A stretch of 64,000 nucleotides of DNA from NCBI GenBank assembly GCA_963713825.1, contig CAVQNG010000034.1, forward strand, positions 1 through 64,000, given 5' to 3'. A program made the position numbers and the translations under genes. The notes beneath the pieces are model-generated. The model did no database searches and had not been told where the DNA came from. It saw nothing but the letters and a program-made list of their open reading frames with translations. This document shows positions 34,549 to 44,715 of this stretch, in pieces; the stretch's first letter is position 1; every line of letters begins with the position of its first letter. This stretch comes from an uncultured Acidobacteriota bacterium (GTDB taxonomy: Bacteria; Acidobacteriota; Thermoanaerobaculia; Multivoradales; JAHEKO01).

Positions 34549-34647
34549 AGCCCAGGGATGCTAGCAGATCGATGACAGCTGGACATTCCGGTGATTTCGT
34601 CGGTTACTGGTAGAATCGAGCGCCCCTGCCTCTCTCGAGTGTCCTCA

Positions 34648-36504
34648 ATGGAAGCGAATTCGCGCACTCCCTCGCTAGCTTTCTCGTCGCGTGCCGAGCG
34701 CGGGGCCGAGGAATCCCACCCAACGGCGGGCTTCTTCCATCGCCCTGTCCGACCGGTCAAGCCGAGGCAGAAGGGCTCTATCGAGGTACCTGACCGCTAC
34801 GTCATCCGAGAAGACGAGGCTGGCTCGTATCTGAGTTGCCTCGAGGCTCCGGAGTTGATGGTTCGAGTCGATCGCGATCTTTCCTTCACTGCGAGTGCCG
34901 CCCGCAAGGCGGATGAGGGGACCATATTTCTGGATGGCGTCGCGCAAGGCGAGCCCTTCATGGAACTCGAACGGCGTGTCTATAACCTGGATCATCACGA
35001 GGGTTGTGTCCGACACTTCACGCTGTCGACCTGTGAACAGGCCCTGGTGCTGGTGGCCCGTGGTCTGGATCTGAGGGAGAAGCCCTGGCAGGTGTACGCC
35101 AATGAGCCGGACCTGGATGTCGTACTGGCCGTCTGGGTATTGTGCAACGGCATGCATCTACAGGCCGAGGACTCGGCGATCCGCAATGCGGTGGTTCCCC
35201 TGGTGAGACTCGAAGGCCTGATCGACTCGCACGGCCTCGAGTTGTACGAGCTCTCCGGCTATCCGCGACAGATGGTGGACGAGATCACCGGCAGTCTCGA
35301 GTCGCTGCGGGAAACCGAGCTGAAGCTCAAGACGGATGGCAAGTGGGAGGGAGCCGACCTGCTCAGGTACCTCCGGGATCAGCTGCGCCTGCTAGACCAG
35401 ATGGTGTACCCGGCGGACTTCTTCGAGGCCTTTCGCGGTATCGAGGAGCTCGCGAAGACCGAGCTCACTGACAATAGGATCGCTGTGGTTTGCCGCTGCG
35501 ATTGCGGCATCTACGAGCTGGAGAAGGAGCTGAAGCGTTTGTATGGCAAGCGGCTCGGGATCGTTGGGCTGCAGAAGGGGCCTGGCGTCTACACGCTACG
35601 CCAGGTAGATCCGTTTCTGCCAGTCGATCTCAACGAGGCTTTTCGCAAGCTCAACGTGCTGGACCCTGCCGTCCAGCGCGGCGGCTCGAGCAATCGCTGG
35701 GGTGGCTCGGGGGAGATTGGCGGCTCGCCTCGCAAGACCGGCACCGCCATGAGTCCGGTCGACATCGCCGAGGCAGTGAAGCTGGCCTATCGCCGGCCCG
35801 GACTGTGGGACCGGTTGCGCTCGATTGGGCTCGCAGTGGGCCTCAGCGCGCTTCCCATGGTGGCAGGCTGGCTCGTCGTGATGTGGAATCAAGTGGTTGA
35901 TGAGCCGCTGGGCCTGTTCTCAGACCGCCTGCTGGAGTTCCTCGCGATGTCCAGCGCAGTCGCGATCTGTTGTCTCTTGTTGCTGGGGCGTCGGCGGAAG
36001 CGGCGGGTCTTCGGCCTGCAAGCTCCTGAGGGTAGGGGCTGGACTCTGATGGCTCCGGTCGTCGCTCTGGGCGGCCTGGCTGGAGGGGTCTGGGTCTTCT
36101 TGCAGTCCTGGTTGCAAGCCGGGACGCTGGGCTCTTTCGGGGTGCCACAGCTCCTGGCACTGGTGGGTTTCCCGCTGCTTGCAGAGGTCGTCTTTCGCGG
36201 CGTGGCGCACGGCGTCATGGTGCACGATTTCAGCGTGCAACACGCCCAGGGCCGCTGGTTCGTGTCGTGGCCTGTTGCAATATCCGCGCTGCTGTTTGTC
36301 ATTTGGAGCTTGATCCTCCGACCCCTGGTGATTACGGACCTCTGGTGGCCCGGTCTGTCGTCCTGGATTCTTCCCTTTGGAGCTGCCGTATCCGGCTTGG
36401 CGCTCGGGATGGCAAGAGAGCGTTCGGGCAGCCTGCTCGCTTCTCTTGGCCTGCACTACCTGGCAGTGGCAATCGGTCTGGTTATCGTCTCGATTCTCCG
36501 CTAG
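34648..36504 (+). CDS. DHH-like soluble domain fused to a degenerate CPBP (CAAX/Abi) membrane domain
   Basis: FLDG, NLDHH, EPDLD in the N-half; multiple TM helices with AEVVFRG and RERSGSL...LH in the C-half; start uncertain. Confidence 0.68.
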   Translation: MEANSRTPSLAFSSRAERGAEESHPTAGFFHRPVRPVKPRQKGSIEVPDRYVIREDEAGSYLSCLEAPELMVRVDRDLSFTASAARKADEGTIFLDGVAQGEPFMELERRVYNLDHHEGCVRHFTLSTCEQALVLVARGLDLREKPWQVYANEPDLDVVLAVWVLCNGMHLQAEDSAIRNAVVPLVRLEGLIDSHGLELYELSGYPRQMVDEITGSLESLRETELKLKTDGKWEGADLLRYLRDQLRLLDQMVYPADFFEAFRGIEELAKTELTDNRIAVVCRCDCGIYELEKELKRLYGKRLGIVGLQKGPGVYTLRQVDPFLPVDLNEAFRKLNVLDPAVQRGGSSNRWGGSGEIGGSPRKTGTAMSPVDIAEAVKLAYRRPGLWDRLRSIGLAVGLSALPMVAGWLVVMWNQVVDEPLGLFSDRLLEFLAMSSAVAICCLLLLGRRRKRRVFGLQAPEGRGWTLMAPVVALGGLAGGVWVFLQSWLQAGTLGSFGVPQLLALVGFPLLAEVVFRGVAHGVMVHDFSVQHAQGRWFVSWPVAISALLFVIWSLILRPLVITDLWWPGLSSWILPFGAAVSGLALGMARERSGSLLASLGLHYLAVAIGLVIVSILR

Positions 36505-36539: not shown

Positions 36540-37151
36540 ATGAGCTCCCTACCCATGAAGTCCTATCGGATCAACGAGATTTTCTTCAGCCTGCAGGGTG
36601 AAGGTGCGCGCACGGGACAGCCGAGTCTGTTCTTGCGATTTTCGAAGTGTAACTTGACCTGTAAGGTCGAGACCCATGGTTTCGATTGCGACACGGAGTT
36701 CGAATCTGGCCGGGACCTGACCGTCGATGAGATCCTCGCCGAGCTGAAGGCTCTCACCGCAGAGTGCTCCTGGGTGGTGCTGACTGGCGGAGAGCCAGCT
36801 CTCCAGATCGACCGGGCGTTGATCGACGCGCTGCACGAGGCCGGCTACCAGCTGGCTATCGAGACCAATGGGACCGTCGAGCTGCCGCCGGGCCTGGATT
36901 GGGTCACGGTCAGCCCGAAGGTCGCCGAGCACGCGATTCGACAACGGGTTGCTGACGAGGTGAAATATGTTCGTACATACGGACAGGCCCTTCCCGAAAC
37001 CTCGGTCAAGGCTGAGAAGTTCTGGATTTCTCCAGCCTTCGAGGGTGATCGAGTCGATCCGCGGACACTCGAGTGGTGTGTGCAACTGGTCAAGGACAAT
37101 CCGCACTGGGGACTTTCCCCACAAATGCACAAGTTCTGGGGCCTTCGATAG
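36540..37151 (+). CDS. queE: 7-carboxy-7-deazaguanine synthase QueE (radical SAM)
   Basis: EIFFSLQGEG, FLRF, CDT, LTGGEP, IETNG, VSPK, LSPQMHK. Confidence 0.9.
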   Translation: MSSLPMKSYRINEIFFSLQGEGARTGQPSLFLRFSKCNLTCKVETHGFDCDTEFESGRDLTVDEILAELKALTAECSWVVLTGGEPALQIDRALIDALHEAGYQLAIETNGTVELPPGLDWVTVSPKVAEHAIRQRVADEVKYVRTYGQALPETSVKAEKFWISPAFEGDRVDPRTLEWCVQLVKDNPHWGLSPQMHKFWGLR

Positions 37152-37324
37152 CCAGAGGGGAATGTCTCCATGGCTCCTTTCTTTGGCTAGGTGAGAGTGC
37201 TACCTTTTTGGATAGCCCCGAGCTACCCGTGTGTTTCGGAGATCACTACCCCTAATGAGGTTCCTCTCGCACCGGTGTTTTCGTAGAGTCTGTTTGGGAA
37301 TGTTGAGTAGGAGCCGCTGAACAC

Positions 37325-37936
37325 ATGTCTTTGATCGCATTGAGAGCACGTCTGTCGGGTCGGCCCCAGGGTGGCAGCCGGACGGACAGATCTGCGCCTT
37401 CGGCTCCGGACGCTCGTCCCCACCTGGTGTTGCGCCGTCTGCTTCCCGTGGCACCGTCGGTGATCGCGGCAGTCATACTGGTCGCCTATCACCTGGTGCT
37501 TCTCTGGCATCGATTGACCGACTTGAGTTTGCTGCAGCCGGCTGTCGCCGTGCGGTGGATCGTCACGGTCGGTCTCTTGATTGGCCTTCGGCGGATGCAG
37601 GTGGCAGGCCTTCCCTTGCTTTGGGGGCGAAGAGCGCTTGCCTTTTGGCTGCTTGTTTTGCTCCTCCATGTGAGCTTCCTTGGACCGCTCTCCACCGAGT
37701 CGTCAGCCTCGGGAGATTGGAGCACCAGTGTCGGTTTGGCACTGGTCCTGCCGGCAGCAACGCCGCTGGTGCTGTTGTCGACGTTTCTGCTGGCCTGCTG
37801 GCTCGCGGCAAGAGCCACAGTAGCGAACTCACGACCACTGCAGTTACTGGCCTTTACGATCGCCAGCGCCGAGCACCCCTCCAGGGGAGGGTGGCTCCCG
37901 TCTCACTCCTCGAGACCCCCTCCAGCTACCTGCTGA
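37325..37936 (+). CDS. 4-TM membrane protein ending in RPPP; candidate arrest-peptide leader
   Basis: GGAG upstream; four hydrophobic segments; C-terminus WLPSHSSRPPPATC; 143 bp upstream of the TonB receptor. Confidence 0.7.
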   Translation: MSLIALRARLSGRPQGGSRTDRSAPSAPDARPHLVLRRLLPVAPSVIAAVILVAYHLVLLWHRLTDLSLLQPAVAVRWIVTVGLLIGLRRMQVAGLPLLWGRRALAFWLLVLLLHVSFLGPLSTESSASGDWSTSVGLALVLPAATPLVLLSTFLLACWLAARATVANSRPLQLLAFTIASAEHPSRGGWLPSHSSRPPPATC

Positions 37937-38079
37937 CATCGGTTTACAACGCCGCCGACCCCTCGAAACGGCACGCTCGCTGTGGCTGCCCGAGGGAACC
38001 TGCTCGCACGGGCTCGAGATCCGGGTTCGGGCAAACCGTAGAACGATCAGCAACACTCTTTTGGAAGGAATTTGGAACC

Positions 38080-40419
38080 ATGCTCAGAACGACACAAGCA
38101 GTAGTCTGGATCTGCCTGCTGGCGCTGGTAATCGTGCCGGTCTCGAGTTGGGCGGCTCCGTCGCCTCAGCAGGATGAGGACGCGACAGTCGACCAAGAAA
38201 CAGATGCCGAAACCCCCGAAGGCGAAGGGGATACAGAACCCGCCGACTCTTTCTTCGAGGCCACCACAGTCACGGCCACTGGGACGGAGGTCGACGTATT
38301 CAGCATTGCGACTCCAGTCTCGGTGATTCCCGAGGAAGAGATCGAGAGGAAGCTTCCCGAGAACGCCGTCGATCTCTTCAGGGCACAGCCAGGCGTAGAC
38401 GTCAACGGTGTAGGCCCCAATCAGGCCAGGCCCATTATTCGAGGCCAGCGGGGTCTCAGGGTCCTGTTCATGGAGAACGGGCTGCGTCTGAACAACGCCC
38501 GCCGACAGTCCGATTTCGGCGAAGTTTCGGGTCTCATCGATATGGGTAGCGTCGGCAGTGTCGAGGTCTTGAGAGGCCCTGCTTCCGTCCTCTACGGGAC
38601 CGACGCAATCGGTGGCGTCTTGAATCTGGTGACCAAGTCACCCGCCTATGGAGACGGCAGTTGGACGGCTGGCTCCCTGGGACTCGGGTACCAGGACGCC
38701 AGCGATGGTTTCAGGGCTCAAGGCTATGTTCAGGGCCGGCAGCAGAAGTGGGCCTTCAATCTGGGTGCCACGTACCGTGACTCCTCGGACTACCTGGCAG
38801 CCGGTGGCAGCTATGGCGATATCACGTTGCCGGACGACACCCCGGTCAACGACACCGGACTGCAGGACGACTCCGTCTACGGCTTCCTGTCTTACGACTT
38901 CACCGACAGTCAGCTGTTGTCGTTCCGGTTCAACCGCTACCGGGCTGGCGAGACCGGGTTCGGTTGGGTGGATCCGATTCTCCTGGGTGAGCTGGACAAG
39001 GTCCAGATTACTTATCCTTTCCAGGATTTCGACCGATATACGATGGAGTACAACGCCAGTGCCCTCCAGTCTGCCCTGGCGAACACGGTGAGAGTCAACC
39101 TGCTGTACCAGGAGAATTCGCGGGAGCTCGTCAACAATATCGACGCCTACGACGACGTCGTTTTCGGGCAACCGTTGCCGCCTGGAATGTTCTTCCATGT
39201 GGGCGTGAACACCGAGAACTTCACGGATCTGTCGACCCTGGGCTTGCGGGCCGAGGCGAGCAAGATCCTGGGTGACAATCACCTGCTCTCCTATGGCGGC
39301 GAGTACTACGACGATGACTCGTTCAACACCGACTACTCGTTCACCTACGGTGCTTTGGCGATGCAGATGGACCCGACCCTGCCGCCCGAGGACATCACCC
39401 CGCCCTTCTTCACGGATGAGGACGACATCGCCAACACTCCCAACGCGGAGAACATCGCCTGGGGCCTGTTCGCCCAGGATCAGTTCCTGATCGGCAGCCG
39501 GTTCTCGGGTACCGCCGGTATTCGGTATGCGAATACCGAGACCAAGGCAAAGGAGACCCCAGGCCTGGACACGACGGGCTTGGATTTTTCCGACGACGAC
39601 TTCGTCGGGGCGGTCAGCGGCGTCTATCAGGTAACGAGCAATCTCAATGTCGTCGGCACCGCCGGCACCGCTTTCCGGGCGCCCAATATCGTGGAGAGGC
39701 TCTTCAACGGTCTGACGCCAGAAGGCAGTGGTTATCAGATTCTCAATTCGGATCTGAAGTCCGAGAACAGCACCAACTTCGATCTGGGCATGAAGTACAG
39801 GCGCATGAACGCCGTCTTCGAGCTCATGATCTTCCGCAACGAGATCAAGGACGGCATCGTGCAGGAGTTCCTGAGCGACGAGGAGATTGCCCAGCTGCCG
39901 CCTGATGTGCAAGAGGAGATCGAGGATTCGGGCGCCAGTGTTGTCGTACAGCAGCAGAACGTCTCCAAGCTCCGATACGAGGGAGTCGAGACCGTCATCG
40001 GTTGGCGCGCCAATAATGGAGTCTCTATCGGAGCCAACTACACTTATCTCGATGCCGAGCGGGTCGACACGGGCACTCCGACTGGCGATACCTATAAGAA
40101 CAAATTCAACTTTCACACCCGCTACGATCGCCCCACTGGTAGGTACTGGGTCGAGTATCGCTTGCGTCACAACGGCAGTACCGATTCCGTCAACGATCCC
40201 GATGCGCCGATCCCGGCGGTTGGTTTGACGTTGCCGGCTTTTACCATACACACCCTGAGCGGCGGCGTGGTGCTGTTCGAAAGAGGCAGACAGCAGCACA
40301 CCCTGACCCTGGTGATCGACAACTTCAGCGACGAGCTCTACTCCGAGTTCTCGAACGCCACCTTCTTCCGCCCGCAGTCGAGGCGGAACTTTCTCGTCAA
40401 CTATCGTCTGCGGATCTGA
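38080..40419 (+). CDS. TonB-dependent receptor (heme/hemoglobin receptor-like)
   Basis: Signal peptide, TonB-box-like TTVTAT, plug PIIRG and VEVLRGPASVLYG.DAIGGV.N, FRAP motif, beta-barrel C-terminus. Confidence 0.92.
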   Translation: MLRTTQAVVWICLLALVIVPVSSWAAPSPQQDEDATVDQETDAETPEGEGDTEPADSFFEATTVTATGTEVDVFSIATPVSVIPEEEIERKLPENAVDLFRAQPGVDVNGVGPNQARPIIRGQRGLRVLFMENGLRLNNARRQSDFGEVSGLIDMGSVGSVEVLRGPASVLYGTDAIGGVLNLVTKSPAYGDGSWTAGSLGLGYQDASDGFRAQGYVQGRQQKWAFNLGATYRDSSDYLAAGGSYGDITLPDDTPVNDTGLQDDSVYGFLSYDFTDSQLLSFRFNRYRAGETGFGWVDPILLGELDKVQITYPFQDFDRYTMEYNASALQSALANTVRVNLLYQENSRELVNNIDAYDDVVFGQPLPPGMFFHVGVNTENFTDLSTLGLRAEASKILGDNHLLSYGGEYYDDDSFNTDYSFTYGALAMQMDPTLPPEDITPPFFTDEDDIANTPNAENIAWGLFAQDQFLIGSRFSGTAGIRYANTETKAKETPGLDTTGLDFSDDDFVGAVSGVYQVTSNLNVVGTAGTAFRAPNIVERLFNGLTPEGSGYQILNSDLKSENSTNFDLGMKYRRMNAVFELMIFRNEIKDGIVQEFLSDEEIAQLPPDVQEEIEDSGASVVVQQQNVSKLRYEGVETVIGWRANNGVSIGANYTYLDAERVDTGTPTGDTYKNKFNFHTRYDRPTGRYWVEYRLRHNGSTDSVNDPDAPIPAVGLTLPAFTIHTLSGGVVLFERGRQQHTLTLVIDNFSDELYSEFSNATFFRPQSRRNFLVNYRLRI

Positions 40420-40440
40420 CCCAGACCTGACTTCCCTCTC

Positions 40441-40475
40441 GGCCCCGGAGTCCGCTCGGATTTCGGGGCCTTTTT
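40441..40475 (+). terminator. Rho-independent terminator
   Basis: GGCCCCGGAGTCC-GCTC-GGATTTCGGGGCC followed by TTTTT. Confidence 0.8.
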
Positions 40476-40496
40476 CCTTGCCGTCGGAGGGACTGA

Positions 40497-41534
40497 CTAA
40501 GGGAGCTGGCTGTGACGGGGAGGCAGGGCCTCTATTTCTAACCCCGCTATCTCGCGCAGTGCTGCCTCGGTATAACGTGCTGTCATCAGGCCGCGCCATT
40601 GGGCCTTGAAATCGGTGTTGTCCATCGGTGTTGCCAGTTTTCGAGCCTGCTGAGCGACTTCTTCGATTCGCTCCTCGGTCAGCGGGTGGCCGCGCAGGAG
40701 TTCGGAAACTGCCTCCACGGCAACGGGCCGCGATCCAACTGCACCCAGGAAGATCCGGGCGTCAGAGACGACGTTGTTGTCAGTGAACCAGACGGCAGCG
40801 GCTACGGACAGCACGGCAAAATCGATGGAACCACGGCGACGAAGCTTCCAGAAGCTCGACCGACAGTGCTCTTGGTCACTCTCGGCAGGAATCAGCACCT
40901 GCGTCACGATCTCGTCGGAGCGCTTCGCCAGATAGTCGATGCCGTCGTCGCGATACAAGTCGGTGAGGGCCAGGTCCCTTTCGCCCCTGGCCGACAGCAG
41001 GCTCACCCTGGCATCCAGTGCGGCGAGCATGGGGGCTGAATCGGCGGCGGTGTGCGCCCAACAGCGCGAAGAGCTGGGGGCGACCCAACAGACCGTGCCA
41101 TCCTCTTTCATGCAGTAGTCGATGGCTCGGCGCCAATCTTCGGTCTGGTTGTAGTACGTGCAGCGGGTGTCGAGGCAGATGTTTCCACCCAAAGTCCCCA
41201 TTTGGCGCAAGGGAGGCGAGGCTATCGAAGCGACCGCCTGAGCCAGGGCGGGGTAGCGTTGCCGCAATGCCGAATCCCGGACCACGTCCTCGAGCAGGGT
41301 CGTAGCGCCGATCCGAGCCTCGCTGGATGGGTCGATCGCATCGATGCCCGCCATATCCCCGATCGACATGAGGCTGACGACCGTCTCCGGCTTCTGGTGG
41401 CGCCGTTTCATGTTCGGCCAGAGGTCGGTGCCGCCCGCGACAACTCGAGCGCCCGGTCCTTCGGAGGCGAGGATCGTCGCGGCCTCACGAGTCGAGTCCG
41501 GCATGTGGAATCTGAATTGGGGCAAACGGAGCAT
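40497..41534 (-). CDS. Molybdo-flavoenzyme FAD subunit with [4Fe-4S] insert (HcrB-like)
   Basis: AGGTDL, TLGGNICLDTRC...C...C...C insert, KLRRRGSIDF. Confidence 0.85.
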   Translation of the reverse strand: MLRLPQFRFHMPDSTREAATILASEGPGARVVAGGTDLWPNMKRRHQKPETVVSLMSIGDMAGIDAIDPSSEARIGATTLLEDVVRDSALRQRYPALAQAVASIASPPLRQMGTLGGNICLDTRCTYYNQTEDWRRAIDYCMKEDGTVCWVAPSSSRCWAHTAADSAPMLAALDARVSLLSARGERDLALTDLYRDDGIDYLAKRSDEIVTQVLIPAESDQEHCRSSFWKLRRRGSIDFAVLSVAAAVWFTDNNVVSDARIFLGAVGSRPVAVEAVSELLRGHPLTEERIEEVAQQARKLATPMDNTDFKAQWRGLMTARYTEAALREIAGLEIEALPPRHSQLP

Positions 41535-41578
41535 TGCGGTTCCTGTTCACTCCTCGAAGACTCGGAGCGCGAGTCGAG

Positions 41579-44131
41579 TCATTTGGTGGTCAGAGCTCCA
41601 TCCTTCCGCTTCAGGGCTTCGGTGCGGTCCGACATAGTGCCCGTGTCACCACGCATCTTGGAAGAGCGCTTCCGCTTGGGATCATTGCTAGCCCTGCCAT
41701 CTCCACCCTCGTCCGGCGTCGGCACGAGGAGCGTCTCCCCGAAGTTCACACGAGGGAAGCCTGTCGGGCCGAATCGAGCTTCTTCACCTCTTTCACCTGC
41801 CAGCAAGGCCTGGTGGATCATGTGGGGCTGGATCGGCACCTGATCGATGCGGACGCCGACCGCGTCGTGGATTGCGTTGGCCAGTGCCGGGGGTATGGGA
41901 AGTAGCGGCCCCTGACCTACCTCCTTGGCACCGAAGGGACCCTCCGGATCTGGATCCTCGATCAGGTAGCTGGTCACCTCGGGCATATCGAGGCAGGTCG
42001 GGCTTTTGTATTCGAGCATTGAAGGCATCTTGTGCACGAGAGCGTCAGACATGTGCCTTGGCAGGCGACGGAATGCCTGTTCCTCCATCATGGCCTCTCC
42101 CAGACCCATGTAGACGGAACCCTCGATCTGACCCAGGACCAGTGTCGGGTTGATGGCCCGGCCGATGTCGTGGGCCAGCCAGACGTGAACGGGGCGATAG
42201 ATGCCGCTCGTCGGGTCCACTTCCACCTCGATGACAGCGGCCGAGTAGGAGTAGGTGGGCGAAGGCCCGACCCCGGCGCCGCGGTATTTGCCCGGCGAGC
42301 GGGGCGGAATGTACGAGCCGACCGTGCCGAGCGTTCCGAATCGAGCCTCGGTCGTGATGACCGAATCCTCGAAGCTCAGGCCGCCCTCCGGATGCGCCGC
42401 GTCGAAGACCCGCCGGTTGGCGAAAACCAGATTCTCAGGTGCCGTCTCGAGGCGCTCGGCAACGGCTGTCGCGATGAGCTCACGAGCCCGCATTGCCGCC
42501 TGGACTGCGGCGTTGCCAGCCATGAGGGTTACCCTGGAGGAGTAGCTACCCAGGTCGACAGGTGTGAGGTCCGTGTCTGCCACGCAGAGTCGGATGTCCT
42601 TCAAATCCACGCCCAAGACATCGGCCACGAGTGCGGCCAATACCGAATCGGAACCCTGCCCGATTTCGGTCTCGCCACAGAACAGCGCGATGCCGCCAGA
42701 GCGGTCGAGCTTGAGCTGGACTCCCGACTGCGGGAGATGATTCCAGTAGATGGGTAGACCGGCGCCGCACATGTAGGCGCCACACGCCAATCCGAGACCA
42801 CGGCCCTCTGGTAACTTGCCTCGGCGTTGGCGCCATCCACTTCCTTCGACGACCGCTTCGATGCAGCGCCGCAAAGCGATCGTGCCCAAGCGCAGCCAGT
42901 TGGCGGTCACCTGGCCCGGGGAAGCGAGATTGGCCAGTCTCAGGTCTGCCGGATCGAGGTCCAGCTTCTCTGCCGCCTTGTCCAGATGAACCTCGAATGC
43001 AAAGCGCGGTTGCGGCGTTCCATGGCCTCGCTTGGGACCGCAGGGTGGCTTGTTGGTGAAACAGCGCACACCGTCGAATTGATAGCGCGGCAGCGAGTAA
43101 GTTGCCGTCTGCAGAGCTCCCGTGTAGTACGTGGAAGCCACTCCGTAGCTGCCGTAGGCGCCGCCGTCGAGAGCGGTCTGGAGGTGCTGGGCCGTGATCG
43201 CCCCCTCTTTCGAGAAGCCGGTTCGGATCTTCATCGCCACCGGATGGCGCCCCCGGTGGCAATAGAAGACCTCCTCGCGATTGAGGACTATCTTGGCCGG
43301 CCTGCCGAGCTCGAGGGCCATCTTCGCGGCGACGATCTCGTGGTTGAAGGGATCGCTCTTGCCGCCGAATCCACCCCCGTTGGGGCAAGCGATGACTCGG
43401 ATCCGGGAGGCGGGAAGTCCCAAGACCCGGGTGAGAGCACGGTGCAGATAGTGGGGTGTCTGAGTCGAAGAGTAGATGGTGACCCGGTCGACATCTTCGG
43501 GGACCGCTACCGTAGCGTGCTGCTCTAGCGCCAGATGAGTGTTGCCTTCGTAGAAGAATTGATCGTCGAGAATCAGGTCGGCATTGTCGAAGCCGGTCTG
43601 GAGGTCGCCAAATCGCAGAGACACGCTCTTGTGGACGTTGCCCTCAGAGCCGTAGTCGTGAATGCGAGGCTCGGGAGTGCCGAGGGCTTCTTCGACCGAA
43701 GCGATGGTTGGTAGCGGCTCGTATTCGACCTCGACGCAGAGGGCGGCCTCGTAGGCCGCGTCTTCGGAAGTCGCTGCCACCGCTGCGACGGGATCGCCGA
43801 CGAATCGCACACGGTCGAGACAGAGAGCGTGCTCGTCCTGGGAAACCGGCAGGATGCCGAAAGTCTCTGGCATGTCGGAGCCGACAAGGCTGCCGAGATA
43901 CCCCGCCACCTTCTCGGCCTGCCCGAAGTCGATTGACGAGATCTTGCCGTGGGGAATCGTGGATCGCACCAGACGGAGGTGACACATCCGTGGGAACTCG
44001 AGGTCATCGGCAAACCGAGTCACGCCACTGACCTTGTCCCGACCATCGACGCGGCGGAACGGCCTGCCGATGTAACGACCCGATGTGGGATCGAAGGGAC
44101 CGGCCTCGTGGCGAGTTTTGGATTCACCCAT
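41579..44131 (-). CDS. Xanthine dehydrogenase-family molybdopterin subunit (HcrA-like)
   Basis: RVDGRDKVSG, STQ.PH, GGGFGGK, KRGHG.PQ, EIGQG, GSYSSR.T, GQIEG, GAKEVGQ. Confidence 0.88.
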   Translation of the reverse strand: MGESKTRHEAGPFDPTSGRYIGRPFRRVDGRDKVSGVTRFADDLEFPRMCHLRLVRSTIPHGKISSIDFGQAEKVAGYLGSLVGSDMPETFGILPVSQDEHALCLDRVRFVGDPVAAVAATSEDAAYEAALCVEVEYEPLPTIASVEEALGTPEPRIHDYGSEGNVHKSVSLRFGDLQTGFDNADLILDDQFFYEGNTHLALEQHATVAVPEDVDRVTIYSSTQTPHYLHRALTRVLGLPASRIRVIACPNGGGFGGKSDPFNHEIVAAKMALELGRPAKIVLNREEVFYCHRGRHPVAMKIRTGFSKEGAITAQHLQTALDGGAYGSYGVASTYYTGALQTATYSLPRYQFDGVRCFTNKPPCGPKRGHGTPQPRFAFEVHLDKAAEKLDLDPADLRLANLASPGQVTANWLRLGTIALRRCIEAVVEGSGWRQRRGKLPEGRGLGLACGAYMCGAGLPIYWNHLPQSGVQLKLDRSGGIALFCGETEIGQGSDSVLAALVADVLGVDLKDIRLCVADTDLTPVDLGSYSSRVTLMAGNAAVQAAMRARELIATAVAERLETAPENLVFANRRVFDAAHPEGGLSFEDSVITTEARFGTLGTVGSYIPPRSPGKYRGAGVGPSPTYSYSAAVIEVEVDPTSGIYRPVHVWLAHDIGRAINPTLVLGQIEGSVYMGLGEAMMEEQAFRRLPRHMSDALVHKMPSMLEYKSPTCLDMPEVTSYLIEDPDPEGPFGAKEVGQGPLLPIPPALANAIHDAVGVRIDQVPIQPHMIHQALLAGERGEEARFGPTGFPRVNFGETLLVPTPDEGGDGRASNDPKRKRSSKMRGDTGTMSDRTEALKRKDGALTTK

Positions 44132-44172
44132 CGTTCTGGTCCAGGTTCTCTTGAGTTTCTCGTCCAGACAAT

Positions 44173-44715
44173 TCAGCCGGCATCGGAGGAGGGAGGAGGA
44201 GTGCCATGGAGGGTTTCGGTCGAGTAGGGGCGCTCTTCGCCACGCATTCGAGCGGCAGCCACCTCGACGGCCTGGACGATCTTGTGGTACCCGGTACAGC
44301 GACAGAGATTCCCGGACAGTGCTTCTTCGATCTGATTTCTGGATGGCGTCTGTTCGTCCTGCAGAAGCGCGATCGATGTCATGAGGATGCCTGGGGTGCA
44401 ATAGCCACACTGCGCGGCATTGAGATCGGCCATGGCGGTCTGCAGCGGGTGAAGCTCATTGGATTCCTGCAAGCCCTCGACGGTCTGGACGTTCTTGCCC
44501 GCCAACTGGGCGGCCAGAAGCAGGCAAGAGAGAATCGGTCGACCGTCCACCAGTACCGTGCAGGCCCCACACTCGCCCAACTCGCATCCGTGCTTGGTCC
44601 CAGTGAGTCGAAGCTGCTCGCGCAAGACCTCGAGCAAGGTGTGATGGGTCGGAAAGGAGAGGGTCCTGGTCTCACCGTTGACGGTCAGCTCGAGGGATGT
44701 GATTTGCTCCGACAT
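44173..44715 (-). CDS. (2Fe-2S) subunit (HcrC/CoxS-like)
   Basis: GTKHGCELGECGACTV, QCGYCTPG, GNLCRCTGY. Confidence 0.93.
   Translation of the reverse strand: MSEQITSLELTVNGETRTLSFPTHHTLLEVLREQLRLTGTKHGCELGECGACTVLVDGRPILSCLLLAAQLAGKNVQTVEGLQESNELHPLQTAMADLNAAQCGYCTPGILMTSIALLQDEQTPSRNQIEEALSGNLCRCTGYHKIVQAVEVAAARMRGEERPYSTETLHGTPPPSSDAG

Follow-up and report, generated by a model that had tools for sequence, protein, structure and literature searches.

A four-helix membrane leader ending in R-x-P-P upstream of TonB-dependent receptor and heme-synthesis genes in Acidobacteriota: a candidate arrest-peptide sensor

We analyzed a 64,000-nucleotide stretch of DNA (hereafter, the window) from an uncultured bacterium of the phylum Acidobacteriota, class Thermoanaerobaculia (GenBank assembly GCA_963713825.1, contig CAVQNG010000034.1, positions 1 to 64,000 of the forward strand). 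In this stretch, an open reading frame (ORF) for a small polytopic membrane protein with an Arg-Pro-Pro-Pro motif next to its C-terminus precedes the gene for a TonB-dependent receptor. We refer to this ORF as the leader and, on balance, consider it to be a RAPP-type arrest-peptide leader that would work like the previously described CruR or CutF, with a new, polytopic and probably heme-sensing domain; this view rests on comparative analysis of the sequences. The transcription unit appears to consist of the leader and the receptor, because a terminator-like hairpin follows the latter and the next genes lie on the other strand. In the loci that contain enough DNA beyond the receptor, the next ORF with a high GC content at third codon positions (GC3) is likewise on the opposite strand. 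The features of the unit, with lengths in nucleotides (nt) or amino acids (aa), are:

37325..37936, + strand: leader gene, 203 codons, ATG start, TGA stop; four-helix inner-membrane protein of an unnamed family, ending in RPPP-ATC-stop
37448..37681, + strand: conserved core, helices 1-3 (residues 42-119), with no length variation; candidate ligand (heme) site on the periplasmic side
37724..37825, + strand: helix 4 (residues ~134-167); frequency of the most common residue 0.41, P143 in 138 of 150 aligned sequences
37826..37912, + strand: cytoplasmic linker from helix 4 to the motif; poorly conserved in sequence, fixed in length
37913..37924, + strand: RPPP codons AGA CCC CCT CCA (R197-P198-P199-P200), a RAPP-like motif, followed by three codons and the stop codon at 37934-37936
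37937..38079, + strand: spacer of 143 nt with three locally conserved hairpins; Shine-Dalgarno-like GGAAGGA at 38063-38069
38080..40419, + strand: TonB-dependent receptor, 779 aa, ATG start, of the heme/hemoglobin-receptor type by similarity to hidden Markov models (HMMs); last gene of the operon
40441..40470, + strand: terminator-like GC hairpin of 13 pairs with a T run behind it, immediately downstream of the receptor

The leader family, its motif and its membrane core

The first-pass annotation of the window, made from the letters alone, described a 203-aa ORF with four transmembrane (TM) segments and SRPPPATC as the last eight residues; the ORF list, an AlphaFold2 model and a hydropathy scan, which delineates four hydrophobic segments, agree with this description in full. 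The ORF represents a genuine gene, whose family is sizeable and has no name. A word-indexed search yielded 67 homologs, and a profile search of 1.84 billion cluster representatives retrieved 619 members at E<=0.001 and 504 at E<=1e-10, nearly all of them 150-220 aa long and with the alignment reaching the C-terminus. The matching genomes are metagenome-assembled genomes of Acidobacteriota and Thermoanaerobaculia; the leader is found in 22 of the 41 genomes of close relatives and in 18 of 401 genomes sampled across the phylum, as a single copy in each. No family in Pfam or NCBIfam matched it, the protein atlas contains only acidobacterial clusters without names, and a Foldseek comparison of the model with the PDB gave no match at E<=0.001. 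A wide VIA-align search with the same model returned helical hairpins only, the best of which (Z 7.1 over 48 residues) falls within the range that the tool calls common for helical models. Frames of ~1,470 aa that appear to be fused to the leader in two relatives were rejected as fusions, being upstream read-through of a stop-poor, GC-rich frame.

The most prominent feature of the family is its C-terminus. An R-x-P-P motif falling in the last 14-16 residues is present in 66 of the 67 homologs (RPPP 60, RAPP 4, RGPP 2), the sole exception being a 115-aa fragment, and in 132 of 139 further representatives (RPPP 96, RAPP 29, RGPP 4, RRPP 2, RQPP 1), so that a conserved terminal R-[P/A/G]-P-P, close to the R[AP]PP to which the annotation drew attention, characterizes the family. 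The seven sequences lacking the motif in the second set comprise two fragments, two with LPPP, one with RPPP 14 residues from the end, and two others. Among the motif-bearing sequences, the Arg and the two final Pro residues are invariant, the variable position is occupied by P in 156, A in 33, G in 6, R in 2 and Q in 1 case over both sets, and 1-11 residues follow the motif. Because ~19% of the family members carry RAPP or RGPP, without a third proline, against ~78% with RPPP, the common element is R-x-P-P rather than PPP. Among 56 distinct loci, we counted 43 different 12-nt strings coding for the motif; five Arg codons occur, as do all four Pro codons at each position. This diversity points to selection acting on the peptide and not on the RNA.

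The motif also belongs to a class with known effects on the ribosome. In ApdA and ApdP, Gly at the variable position is fully permissive for arrest and other small residues, including Pro, partly retain it, and screens of random sequences returned RxPP with G, A, S or P at x (PMC12992588); the residues allowed in the leader family match these. Using as a crude proxy for the proteome 2,478 long ORFs with GC3 of at least 0.72 from the window's genome (96.4% complete; hereafter, G000), we obtained observed-to-expected ratios of 0.17 for RAPP, 0.25 for RGPP and 0.63 for RPPP; the ratios for APPP, LPPP, SPPP and EPPP are in the range of 1.5 to 2.0. This depletion of RxPP matches the proteome-wide avoidance reported in the same article.

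Two departures from the motif pattern were observed. At L015:4480-4520, the in-frame motif is missing and RPPP appears in another frame just before the stop codon, a discrepancy that is probably due to an indel in the assembly. In a small subgroup (L018, L046, P0145, P0147), the otherwise invariant Arg is replaced, giving LPPP, with a membrane protein and the receptor still downstream; this subgroup could be a natural test of the need for Arg. A crude scan of G000, performed without a gene caller, for membrane ORFs that end in RxPP and precede genes detected no second leader. The same scan also matched an ankyrin-repeat protein and a low-GC3 ORF repeated in three copies (C3:980033-980668, C26:14963-15790, C27:14968-15795) with identical C-terminal 24 residues, which probably represents a non-coding frame of a repeated mobile element.

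The AlphaFold2 model built from 150 sequences contains four long helices (residues 42-65, 72-94, 102-118 and 134-167), with a mean predicted local distance difference test (pLDDT) score of 71.8 and values of 82-88 over helices 1-3; a run with 30 sequences reached 58.7. The 150 sequences were picked for the presence of the motif, and the invariance of R197, P199 and P200 in this alignment is accordingly not counted as evidence for it. Two histidines of the helix 1-3 block, H56 (37490-37492) and H115 (37667-37669), are invariant in all 150 sequences, and R63, P72, R77, W78, G95, G101, R102, W108 and P143 are each present in at least 88%; loop 3 and helix 4 are less conserved than the helix 1-3 core. 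Of the histidines in or near helices 1 and 3 to which the annotation had pointed, His56, His62 and His115 are located where it placed them; the first and the third are the invariant ones, and H62 is not conserved. The statement that the protein is polytopic and has no CxxC is accurate as well: C157 and C203 are the only cysteines, and the 150-sequence alignment contains no conserved Cys column.

The net charges over the family are +4.8 for the N-terminus, +1.4 for loop 2, -1.1 for loop 3 and +3.7 for the C-terminal tail. The positive-inside rule is well established for membrane proteins, and under this rule the charge pattern implies that both termini are cytoplasmic and that loops 1 and 3 are periplasmic. 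H56 in helix 1 and H115 in helix 3 are then predicted to lie roughly one turn in from the periplasmic end of each helix, flanked by R63, R77 and W78 in periplasmic loop 1, and a pocket with two axial His and two Arg would resemble a b-type heme site.

Between helix 4 and the motif, the linker evolves freely in sequence but not in length. In the 150-sequence alignment, its median length is 32 aa (interquartile range (IQR) 31-33) at a top-residue frequency of 0.36, and an independent hydropathy measure puts the last Pro a median of 36 residues (IQR 32.5-39, n=199) beyond the end of the last hydrophobic segment; the ~34 aa estimated in the annotation fall within the 32-36 residues so obtained. 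A free sequence combined with a fixed length of about one exit tunnel is what one would expect if the linker served to hold a membrane segment just outside a stalled ribosome. The leader thus possesses both the TM or signal segment and the spacer of >30 residues before the motif that were used to search for monitoring substrates (PMC10987492).

Operon context and the heme connection

We gathered 76 leader loci, which collapse to 61 non-redundant ones when those with identical last 60 leader residues are merged; 55 of these are assessable. The loci are kin rather than independent events. The gene orders are:

leader-receptor: 31 of 61 loci
leader-250-aa membrane protein-receptor: 12 of 61 loci
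leader-250-aa membrane protein, contig ends: 3 of 61 loci
leader-CcsA/HemX-like protein, contig ends: 4 of 61 loci
leader-CcsA-like-HemA: 2 of 61 loci
leader-HemA: 3 of 61 loci
too little DNA after the leader: 4 of 61 loci; leader cut by the contig end: 2 of 61 loci

In all 55 assessable loci, the leader comes first, and the receptor or hemX/hemA is next on the same strand; 46 loci lead into the receptor, in line with the adjacency to TonB receptors suggested by the annotation, and nine into hemX/hemA heme-biosynthesis operons. Any other downstream gene occurs in 0 of these 55 loci, and sec or yidC never does. The distance from the leader to the next gene varies from 100 to 290 nt across the loci. 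The receptors at leader loci are orthologs of the one in the window, with 50-92% identity. In the second type of operon, the CcsA-like protein matches PF01578 at 4.5e-24, and HemA scores 373 bits with TIGR01035, above the cut-off of 209.55; in the phylum sample, each of the four genomes of the hemA type has hemB in the same leader-headed cluster, 2-3 kb downstream. The receptor and hemA types occur in different taxonomic families.

Several individual loci deserve mention. The hemX(CcsA-like)-hemA or hemA...hemB arrangements are seen at L058:1048-3055 and at L061-L064, and in one genome (G214) the match to hemA is split in two (profile positions 2-190 and 187-414), perhaps by a frameshift or an assembly error. 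The polytopic membrane protein of ~250 aa that stands between the leader and the receptor in 15 of the 61 loci (L016:2929-3678, L012:4811-5554 and 13 more) matches no Pfam or NCBIfam family, falls only into unnamed atlas clusters and did not turn up in G000; it may serve the receptor as a partner in the inner membrane.

The context of the leader also bears on the question whether its protein product has a function of its own. A stable inner-membrane heme-handling protein, such as a small b-type cytochrome, a heme chaperone or an accessory of the receptor or of HemA, with RxPP as a binding or turnover tag or a mere pause, could account for the strong conservation of the helix 1-3 core, with its invariant His and lack of indels, and for a size exceeding that of classical leaders, and HemX-type membrane proteins are known to modulate HemA. 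We consider this explanation quite unlikely, given that the gene is always first in the operon and is followed by a long conserved spacer, that it serves two operon types, that the length of the linker is fixed at a free sequence, and that the motif, always 1-11 residues from the stop codon, belongs to a class shown to arrest ribosomes and excluded from proteomes (PMC12992588), in accord with its depletion in G000. The simplest account of the data as a whole would be an arrest-peptide leader whose release depends on a ligand held by the His site in the membrane.

The heme supply of the host can be examined through the gene content of G000. Searches of this genome gave no match to hemA (glutamyl-tRNA reductase), hemB/ALAD, hemC (porphobilinogen deaminase) or ferrochelatase, for which most control genomes were matched, although G000 encodes two COX1 proteins (subunit I of heme-copper oxidases) and three cytochrome-c-assembly proteins. 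Because the synthesis genes are unmatched yet heme-copper oxidases are kept, the organism looks like a heme auxotroph that needs heme. Among the 14 phylum-sample genomes with receptor-type loci, 10 (96-100% complete) have neither hemA over the cut-off nor ALAD, and all four hemA-type genomes of the phylum sample have both; this association with the heme pathway is descriptive only, because the genomes are kin and share traits. The annotation mentioned heme as a possible ligand, and the nine hemX/hemA loci among 55, together with the apparent lack of tetrapyrrole synthesis in G000, support this idea independently; the binding of heme itself is what we infer.

The receptor fits this picture in part. 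It contains the Plug domain PF07715 (1.2e-21) and the TonB barrel PF00593 (8.5e-39), its best NCBIfam models are TIGR01785 (218.7 bits) and TIGR01786 (191.8 bits), both below their cut-offs, compared with 103 bits for a siderophore model, and it is the best TonB-hemin match in G000 (218.5 bits against 97.4 for the next). A typical heme receptor has a FRAP box, an NPNL box and, between the two, a conserved His. The designation of the receptor as a heme-type protein with a FRAP motif accordingly stands as regards the FRAP box, found at residue 532, and the best-matching model, but not as regards the score; the second box is NSDL in this receptor and NPDL in most of its orthologs.

Among possible ligands, heme is the likeliest, since only a heme-type receptor and genes at the entry of heme synthesis ever stand behind the leader, and both should rise when heme is scarce. 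An arrest leader could nonetheless respond to another signal: the capacity for Sec/YidC insertion, which MifM and SecM monitor, a metal ion such as iron bound by the two His, another tetrapyrrole such as cobalamin, or the activity of elongation factor P (EF-P) at a polyproline run. The linker geometry and TM signal agree with the criteria by which Sec/YidC monitoring substrates were sought (PMC10987492), and stalling of CutF depends on EF-P at a PPP run (bioRxiv 10.1101/2025.02.05.636593). Moreover, many metals are bound by pairs of His, all tetrapyrroles draw on hemA, and the receptor cannot be called a clear heme receptor. The restriction of the downstream genes to the receptor or hemX/hemA, never sec or yidC, speaks against a non-heme signal; a shortage of iron should regulate uptake and hemA in opposite directions; the region contains no cobalamin riboswitch or other Rfam element; and the RAPP and RGPP members of the family show that the shared element is not polyproline. 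We therefore regard a non-heme signal as unlikely, albeit worth keeping in view, and retain heme as the favored ligand.

The spacer and the surroundings of the operon

The complementary words in the spacer (CGGTTT/AAACCG and CCCTCG/CGAGGG) that the annotation had singled out are present and paired in the minimum-free-energy fold, but this fold is nothing special: for 37900-38095, z = -0.27, and 72 of 200 shuffled sequences fold at least as well. Of the two pairings, the long-range CGGTTT/AAACCG one is not preserved in relatives; the CCCTCG/CGAGGG helix recurs in 7 of 7 close relatives but hardly covaries. The three hairpins of the spacer are likewise present in all 7, with compensatory changes in 4 of 52 pairs. 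The nucleotide identity of the spacer to its relatives is 0.73-0.74, compared with 0.75-0.77 for the leader coding DNA. No intrinsic terminator was detected in the 143-nt spacer, no Rfam family matched within 36900-38300 at E<=1, and a scan for sigma-70-like promoters over 36900-40700 found 0 sites.

These data bear on the possibility that regulation proceeds through the spacer RNA, by riboswitch-like or attenuator hairpins, or through an unseen protein regulator, with the leader motif being incidental. The hairpins retained in all close relatives and a spacer as conserved as coding DNA are what such a scheme would predict. Against it, the peptide motif occurs throughout the family but the spacers of its subgroups are unrelated in sequence, nothing in Rfam matches, the fold does not exceed that of shuffled sequences, and compensatory changes are few, so that we hold this explanation to be very improbable.

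An arrest at the motif could affect the downstream gene in more than one way, and the sequences contain hints at two of them. A stretch rich in C over G (C/G ratio 1.9-2.5 over 78 nt) overlaps the 3' part of the leader in 12 of 12 loci, and in most of them also the motif; the codons for Pro, Ser and Arg partly explain this bias. In a distant subgroup of the receptor type, the last codons of the leader and the stop codon pair with the GGAGAG site of the receptor in 7 of 7 sequences (RNAalifold), with one compensatory pair, and a fraction of 0.11-0.74 of the pairing probability of the ribosome-binding site (RBS) goes to the footprint of a ribosome positioned at the motif; alternative partners exist. 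These predicted pairings make masking of the RBS by the leader a suggestive possibility for the distant subgroup, not for the clade of the window.

Contigs from RNA libraries (four runs from two studies) cover 37040-37470, 37313-37662, 37693-37922, 38044-38293 and parts of the receptor, at low depth and with DNA carry-over possible; none bridges 37923-38043, which speaks neither for nor against co-transcription or attenuation. The first of these contigs spans the end of the upstream gene, which is QueE-like, and the start of the leader. The neighboring genes in the window are:

34591-36504, + strand: 637-aa ORF; C-terminal part with a weak match to CPBP/Rce1-like proteases (MrtJ-like), long N-terminal region without a family
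36540-37151, + strand: QueE-like radical-SAM gene, TIGR04508 152.9 bits, below the cut-off; directly upstream of the leader
40497-44410, - strand: convergent genes of the xanthine dehydrogenase / CO dehydrogenase type, with an FAD-binding subunit assigned by Pfam; a 943-aa ORF among them is presumably the molybdopterin subunit, an assignment made without a search

Proposed mechanism and relation to known arrest peptides

The following scenario would connect these observations. The nascent leader would insert helices 1-3 into the inner membrane with the N-terminus inside, and when the ribosome reaches R197-P-P-P200, peptide-bond formation would stall, as the motif suggests. At this point, helix 4 would be ~32-36 residues from the peptidyl-transferase center, that is, just outside the exit tunnel, and the ribosome stalled on the 3' end of the leader would keep the downstream gene on in one of two ways: it could deny Rho access to the C-rich stretch, the mode proposed for CruR, or hold open the pairing with the RBS of the next gene, as proposed for CutF and SecM. 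When available, a tetrapyrrole, most likely heme, would be ligated by His56 and His115, together with R63, R77 and W78, at the periplasmic ends of helices 1-3; ligation would pack the bundle, helix 4 would dock, and the resulting pull on the chain would release the arrest. The ribosome would then terminate three codons after the motif, and the downstream gene would be off. The net logic would be that low heme switches on heme uptake, as in the window, or heme synthesis, as with hemX/hemA in other lineages. Stalling, the ligand, the direction of the switch and the mode of coupling are all elements that we infer; in particular, a stall that means on, a heme-dependent release that means off, and the pulling role of helix 4 are modeled by analogy on CruR and on force-sensitive arrest peptides. 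In its most specific form, the scenario makes the leader the first nascent-chain heme sensor, in which ligation by the His pair occurs co-translationally and helix 4 pulls the RPPP-arrested ribosome free, to control both uptake in heme-auxotrophic Acidobacteriota and hemX/hemA in heme-making ones; to this form, we attach only tentative credence, somewhat short of belief.

Several observations weigh against an arrest leader that senses heme. With 150-200 aa, the protein is large for a leader, and its well-conserved core would likewise suit a stable, working membrane protein; the AlphaFold2 model is of middling confidence. In the ApdA/ApdP context, RPPP is only partly arrest-competent (PMC12992588), and in the leader it might be an ordinary EF-P-dependent pause. 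The 218.7 bits of the receptor compare with a TIGR01785 cut-off of 316.85, and 11 of 11 orthologs have no His between the FRAP and NPDL/NSDL boxes. ALAD is present in four of the 14 receptor-type genomes and was not found in 86 of the 401 sampled Acidobacteriota genomes (21%), a tally that includes the unpublished genomes G063, G088 and G189, each with a match. On the RNA side, a spacer that folds no better than its shuffles provides no special structure, and the receptor RBS in the clade of the window is largely unpaired (its probability of being unpaired changes from 0.40 to 0.46 when the footprint is masked, and its pairing to the footprint amounts to 0.04).

The closest known counterpart of the leader is CruR (Bp2923, DUF2946) of Bordetella pertussis, which is encoded upstream of the TonB-dependent transporter BfrG; expression of the downstream gene depends on its motif, and the proposal is that the ligand lifts the arrest and so lets Rho terminate transcription (PMC9426467). 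CruR shares with the leader the first position in the operon, an R-x-P-P three residues before the end, the downstream TonB-dependent transporter, a long spacer (162 nt compared with 143 nt) and a C>G region at the 3' end. It differs in being exported, and its ~145 aa include a signal peptide and, 45 residues ahead of RAPP, a CxxC copper site (PMC9426467), whereas the leader has four TM helices, no CxxC, two invariant His and mostly RPPP, and the target genes are heme-related rather than copper-related. CutF (DUF2946) of Rhodobacter capsulatus, encoded upstream of the multicopper oxidase CutO, resembles the leader in its C-terminal, PPP-containing stall motif, in sensing a periplasmic ligand while the C-terminus is still in the ribosome, and in a stall proposed to melt an RBS-hiding stem-loop, for which the pairing predicted in one leader subgroup would be a counterpart (bioRxiv 10.1101/2025.02.05.636593). 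In CutF, however, which is secreted and has a CxxxC site, copper induces an EF-P-dependent stall that turns the gene on (same source); the ligand of the leader would turn the gene off, and its sensor is polytopic. The leader does not belong to the DUF2946 class, since it has no PF11162 match, no CxxC or CxxxC, and four helices in place of a signal peptide or a single anchor: none of 30 family members tested matches the DUF2946 HMM at E<=5, and PF11162 is found nowhere in G000 but does match in control genomes. All the comparative checks proposed in the annotation, on the motif, the histidines, the linker length, the adjacency to receptors and DUF2946, favor its interpretation.

More generally, ApdA/ApdP and the 'RQH' RAPP-like peptides share with the leader a C-terminal R-[A/G]-P-P, an N-terminal localization signal or TM segment, a spacer of >30 residues, the position as an upstream ORF and the avoidance of the motif across the proteome (PMC10987492, PMC12992588). 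The surveys in these articles describe small membrane proteins with RAPP or RGPP upstream of metal and TonB genes, and the supplements of PMC12992588 contain thousands of RAPP ORFs before TonB receptors. They sought RAPP and RGPP, however, whereas the leader family is mostly RPPP, and the upstream ORFs that precede TonB receptors almost all encode signal peptides (PMC12992588) instead of four helices; in the searched part of the supplement text of this article, there is no mention of glutamyl-tRNA reductase, hemA or heme. MifM and SecM also have a TM or signal segment about one tunnel length upstream of the arrest site, and the pull of insertion can release their stall; unlike the leader, they regulate the insertion or secretion machinery itself and have one hydrophobic segment, whereas the leader has a conserved putative ligand site made up by three helices and a fourth helix in a position to pull. 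Force-profile work on arrest peptides has reportedly come from von Heijne's laboratory.

Arrest-peptide leaders that sense something beyond the secretion machinery have been recognized only recently and, to our knowledge, have so far been tied to copper, cysteine motifs and exported proteins. The arrest principle and RAPP-type leaders before TonB receptors are thus already known; the family, the sensor architecture, the probable ligand and the target pathway are new. In the literature searched, which did not extend to subscription journals, no paper was found to describe an arrest peptide that responds to heme or a leader peptide for hemA, and we know of no regulator of the first committed step of heme synthesis in Acidobacteriota. 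If the proposed function is correct, the family would add a different class of ligand, heme or another tetrapyrrole, to those of arrest leaders, and its sensor would be built differently, around a pair of His within the membrane in a four-helix protein. It would also provide a concrete, testable case of ligand-dependent folding of a membrane protein acting on the ribosome, and the compactness of the family, with its sharply invariant residues H56, H115, R197, P199 and P200, makes mutational tests straightforward. For the biology of the group, the leader would then represent a regulatory handle on the scavenging of heme by uncultured, heme-auxotrophic sediment Acidobacteriota and, in their relatives, on the control of the first committed step of heme synthesis.

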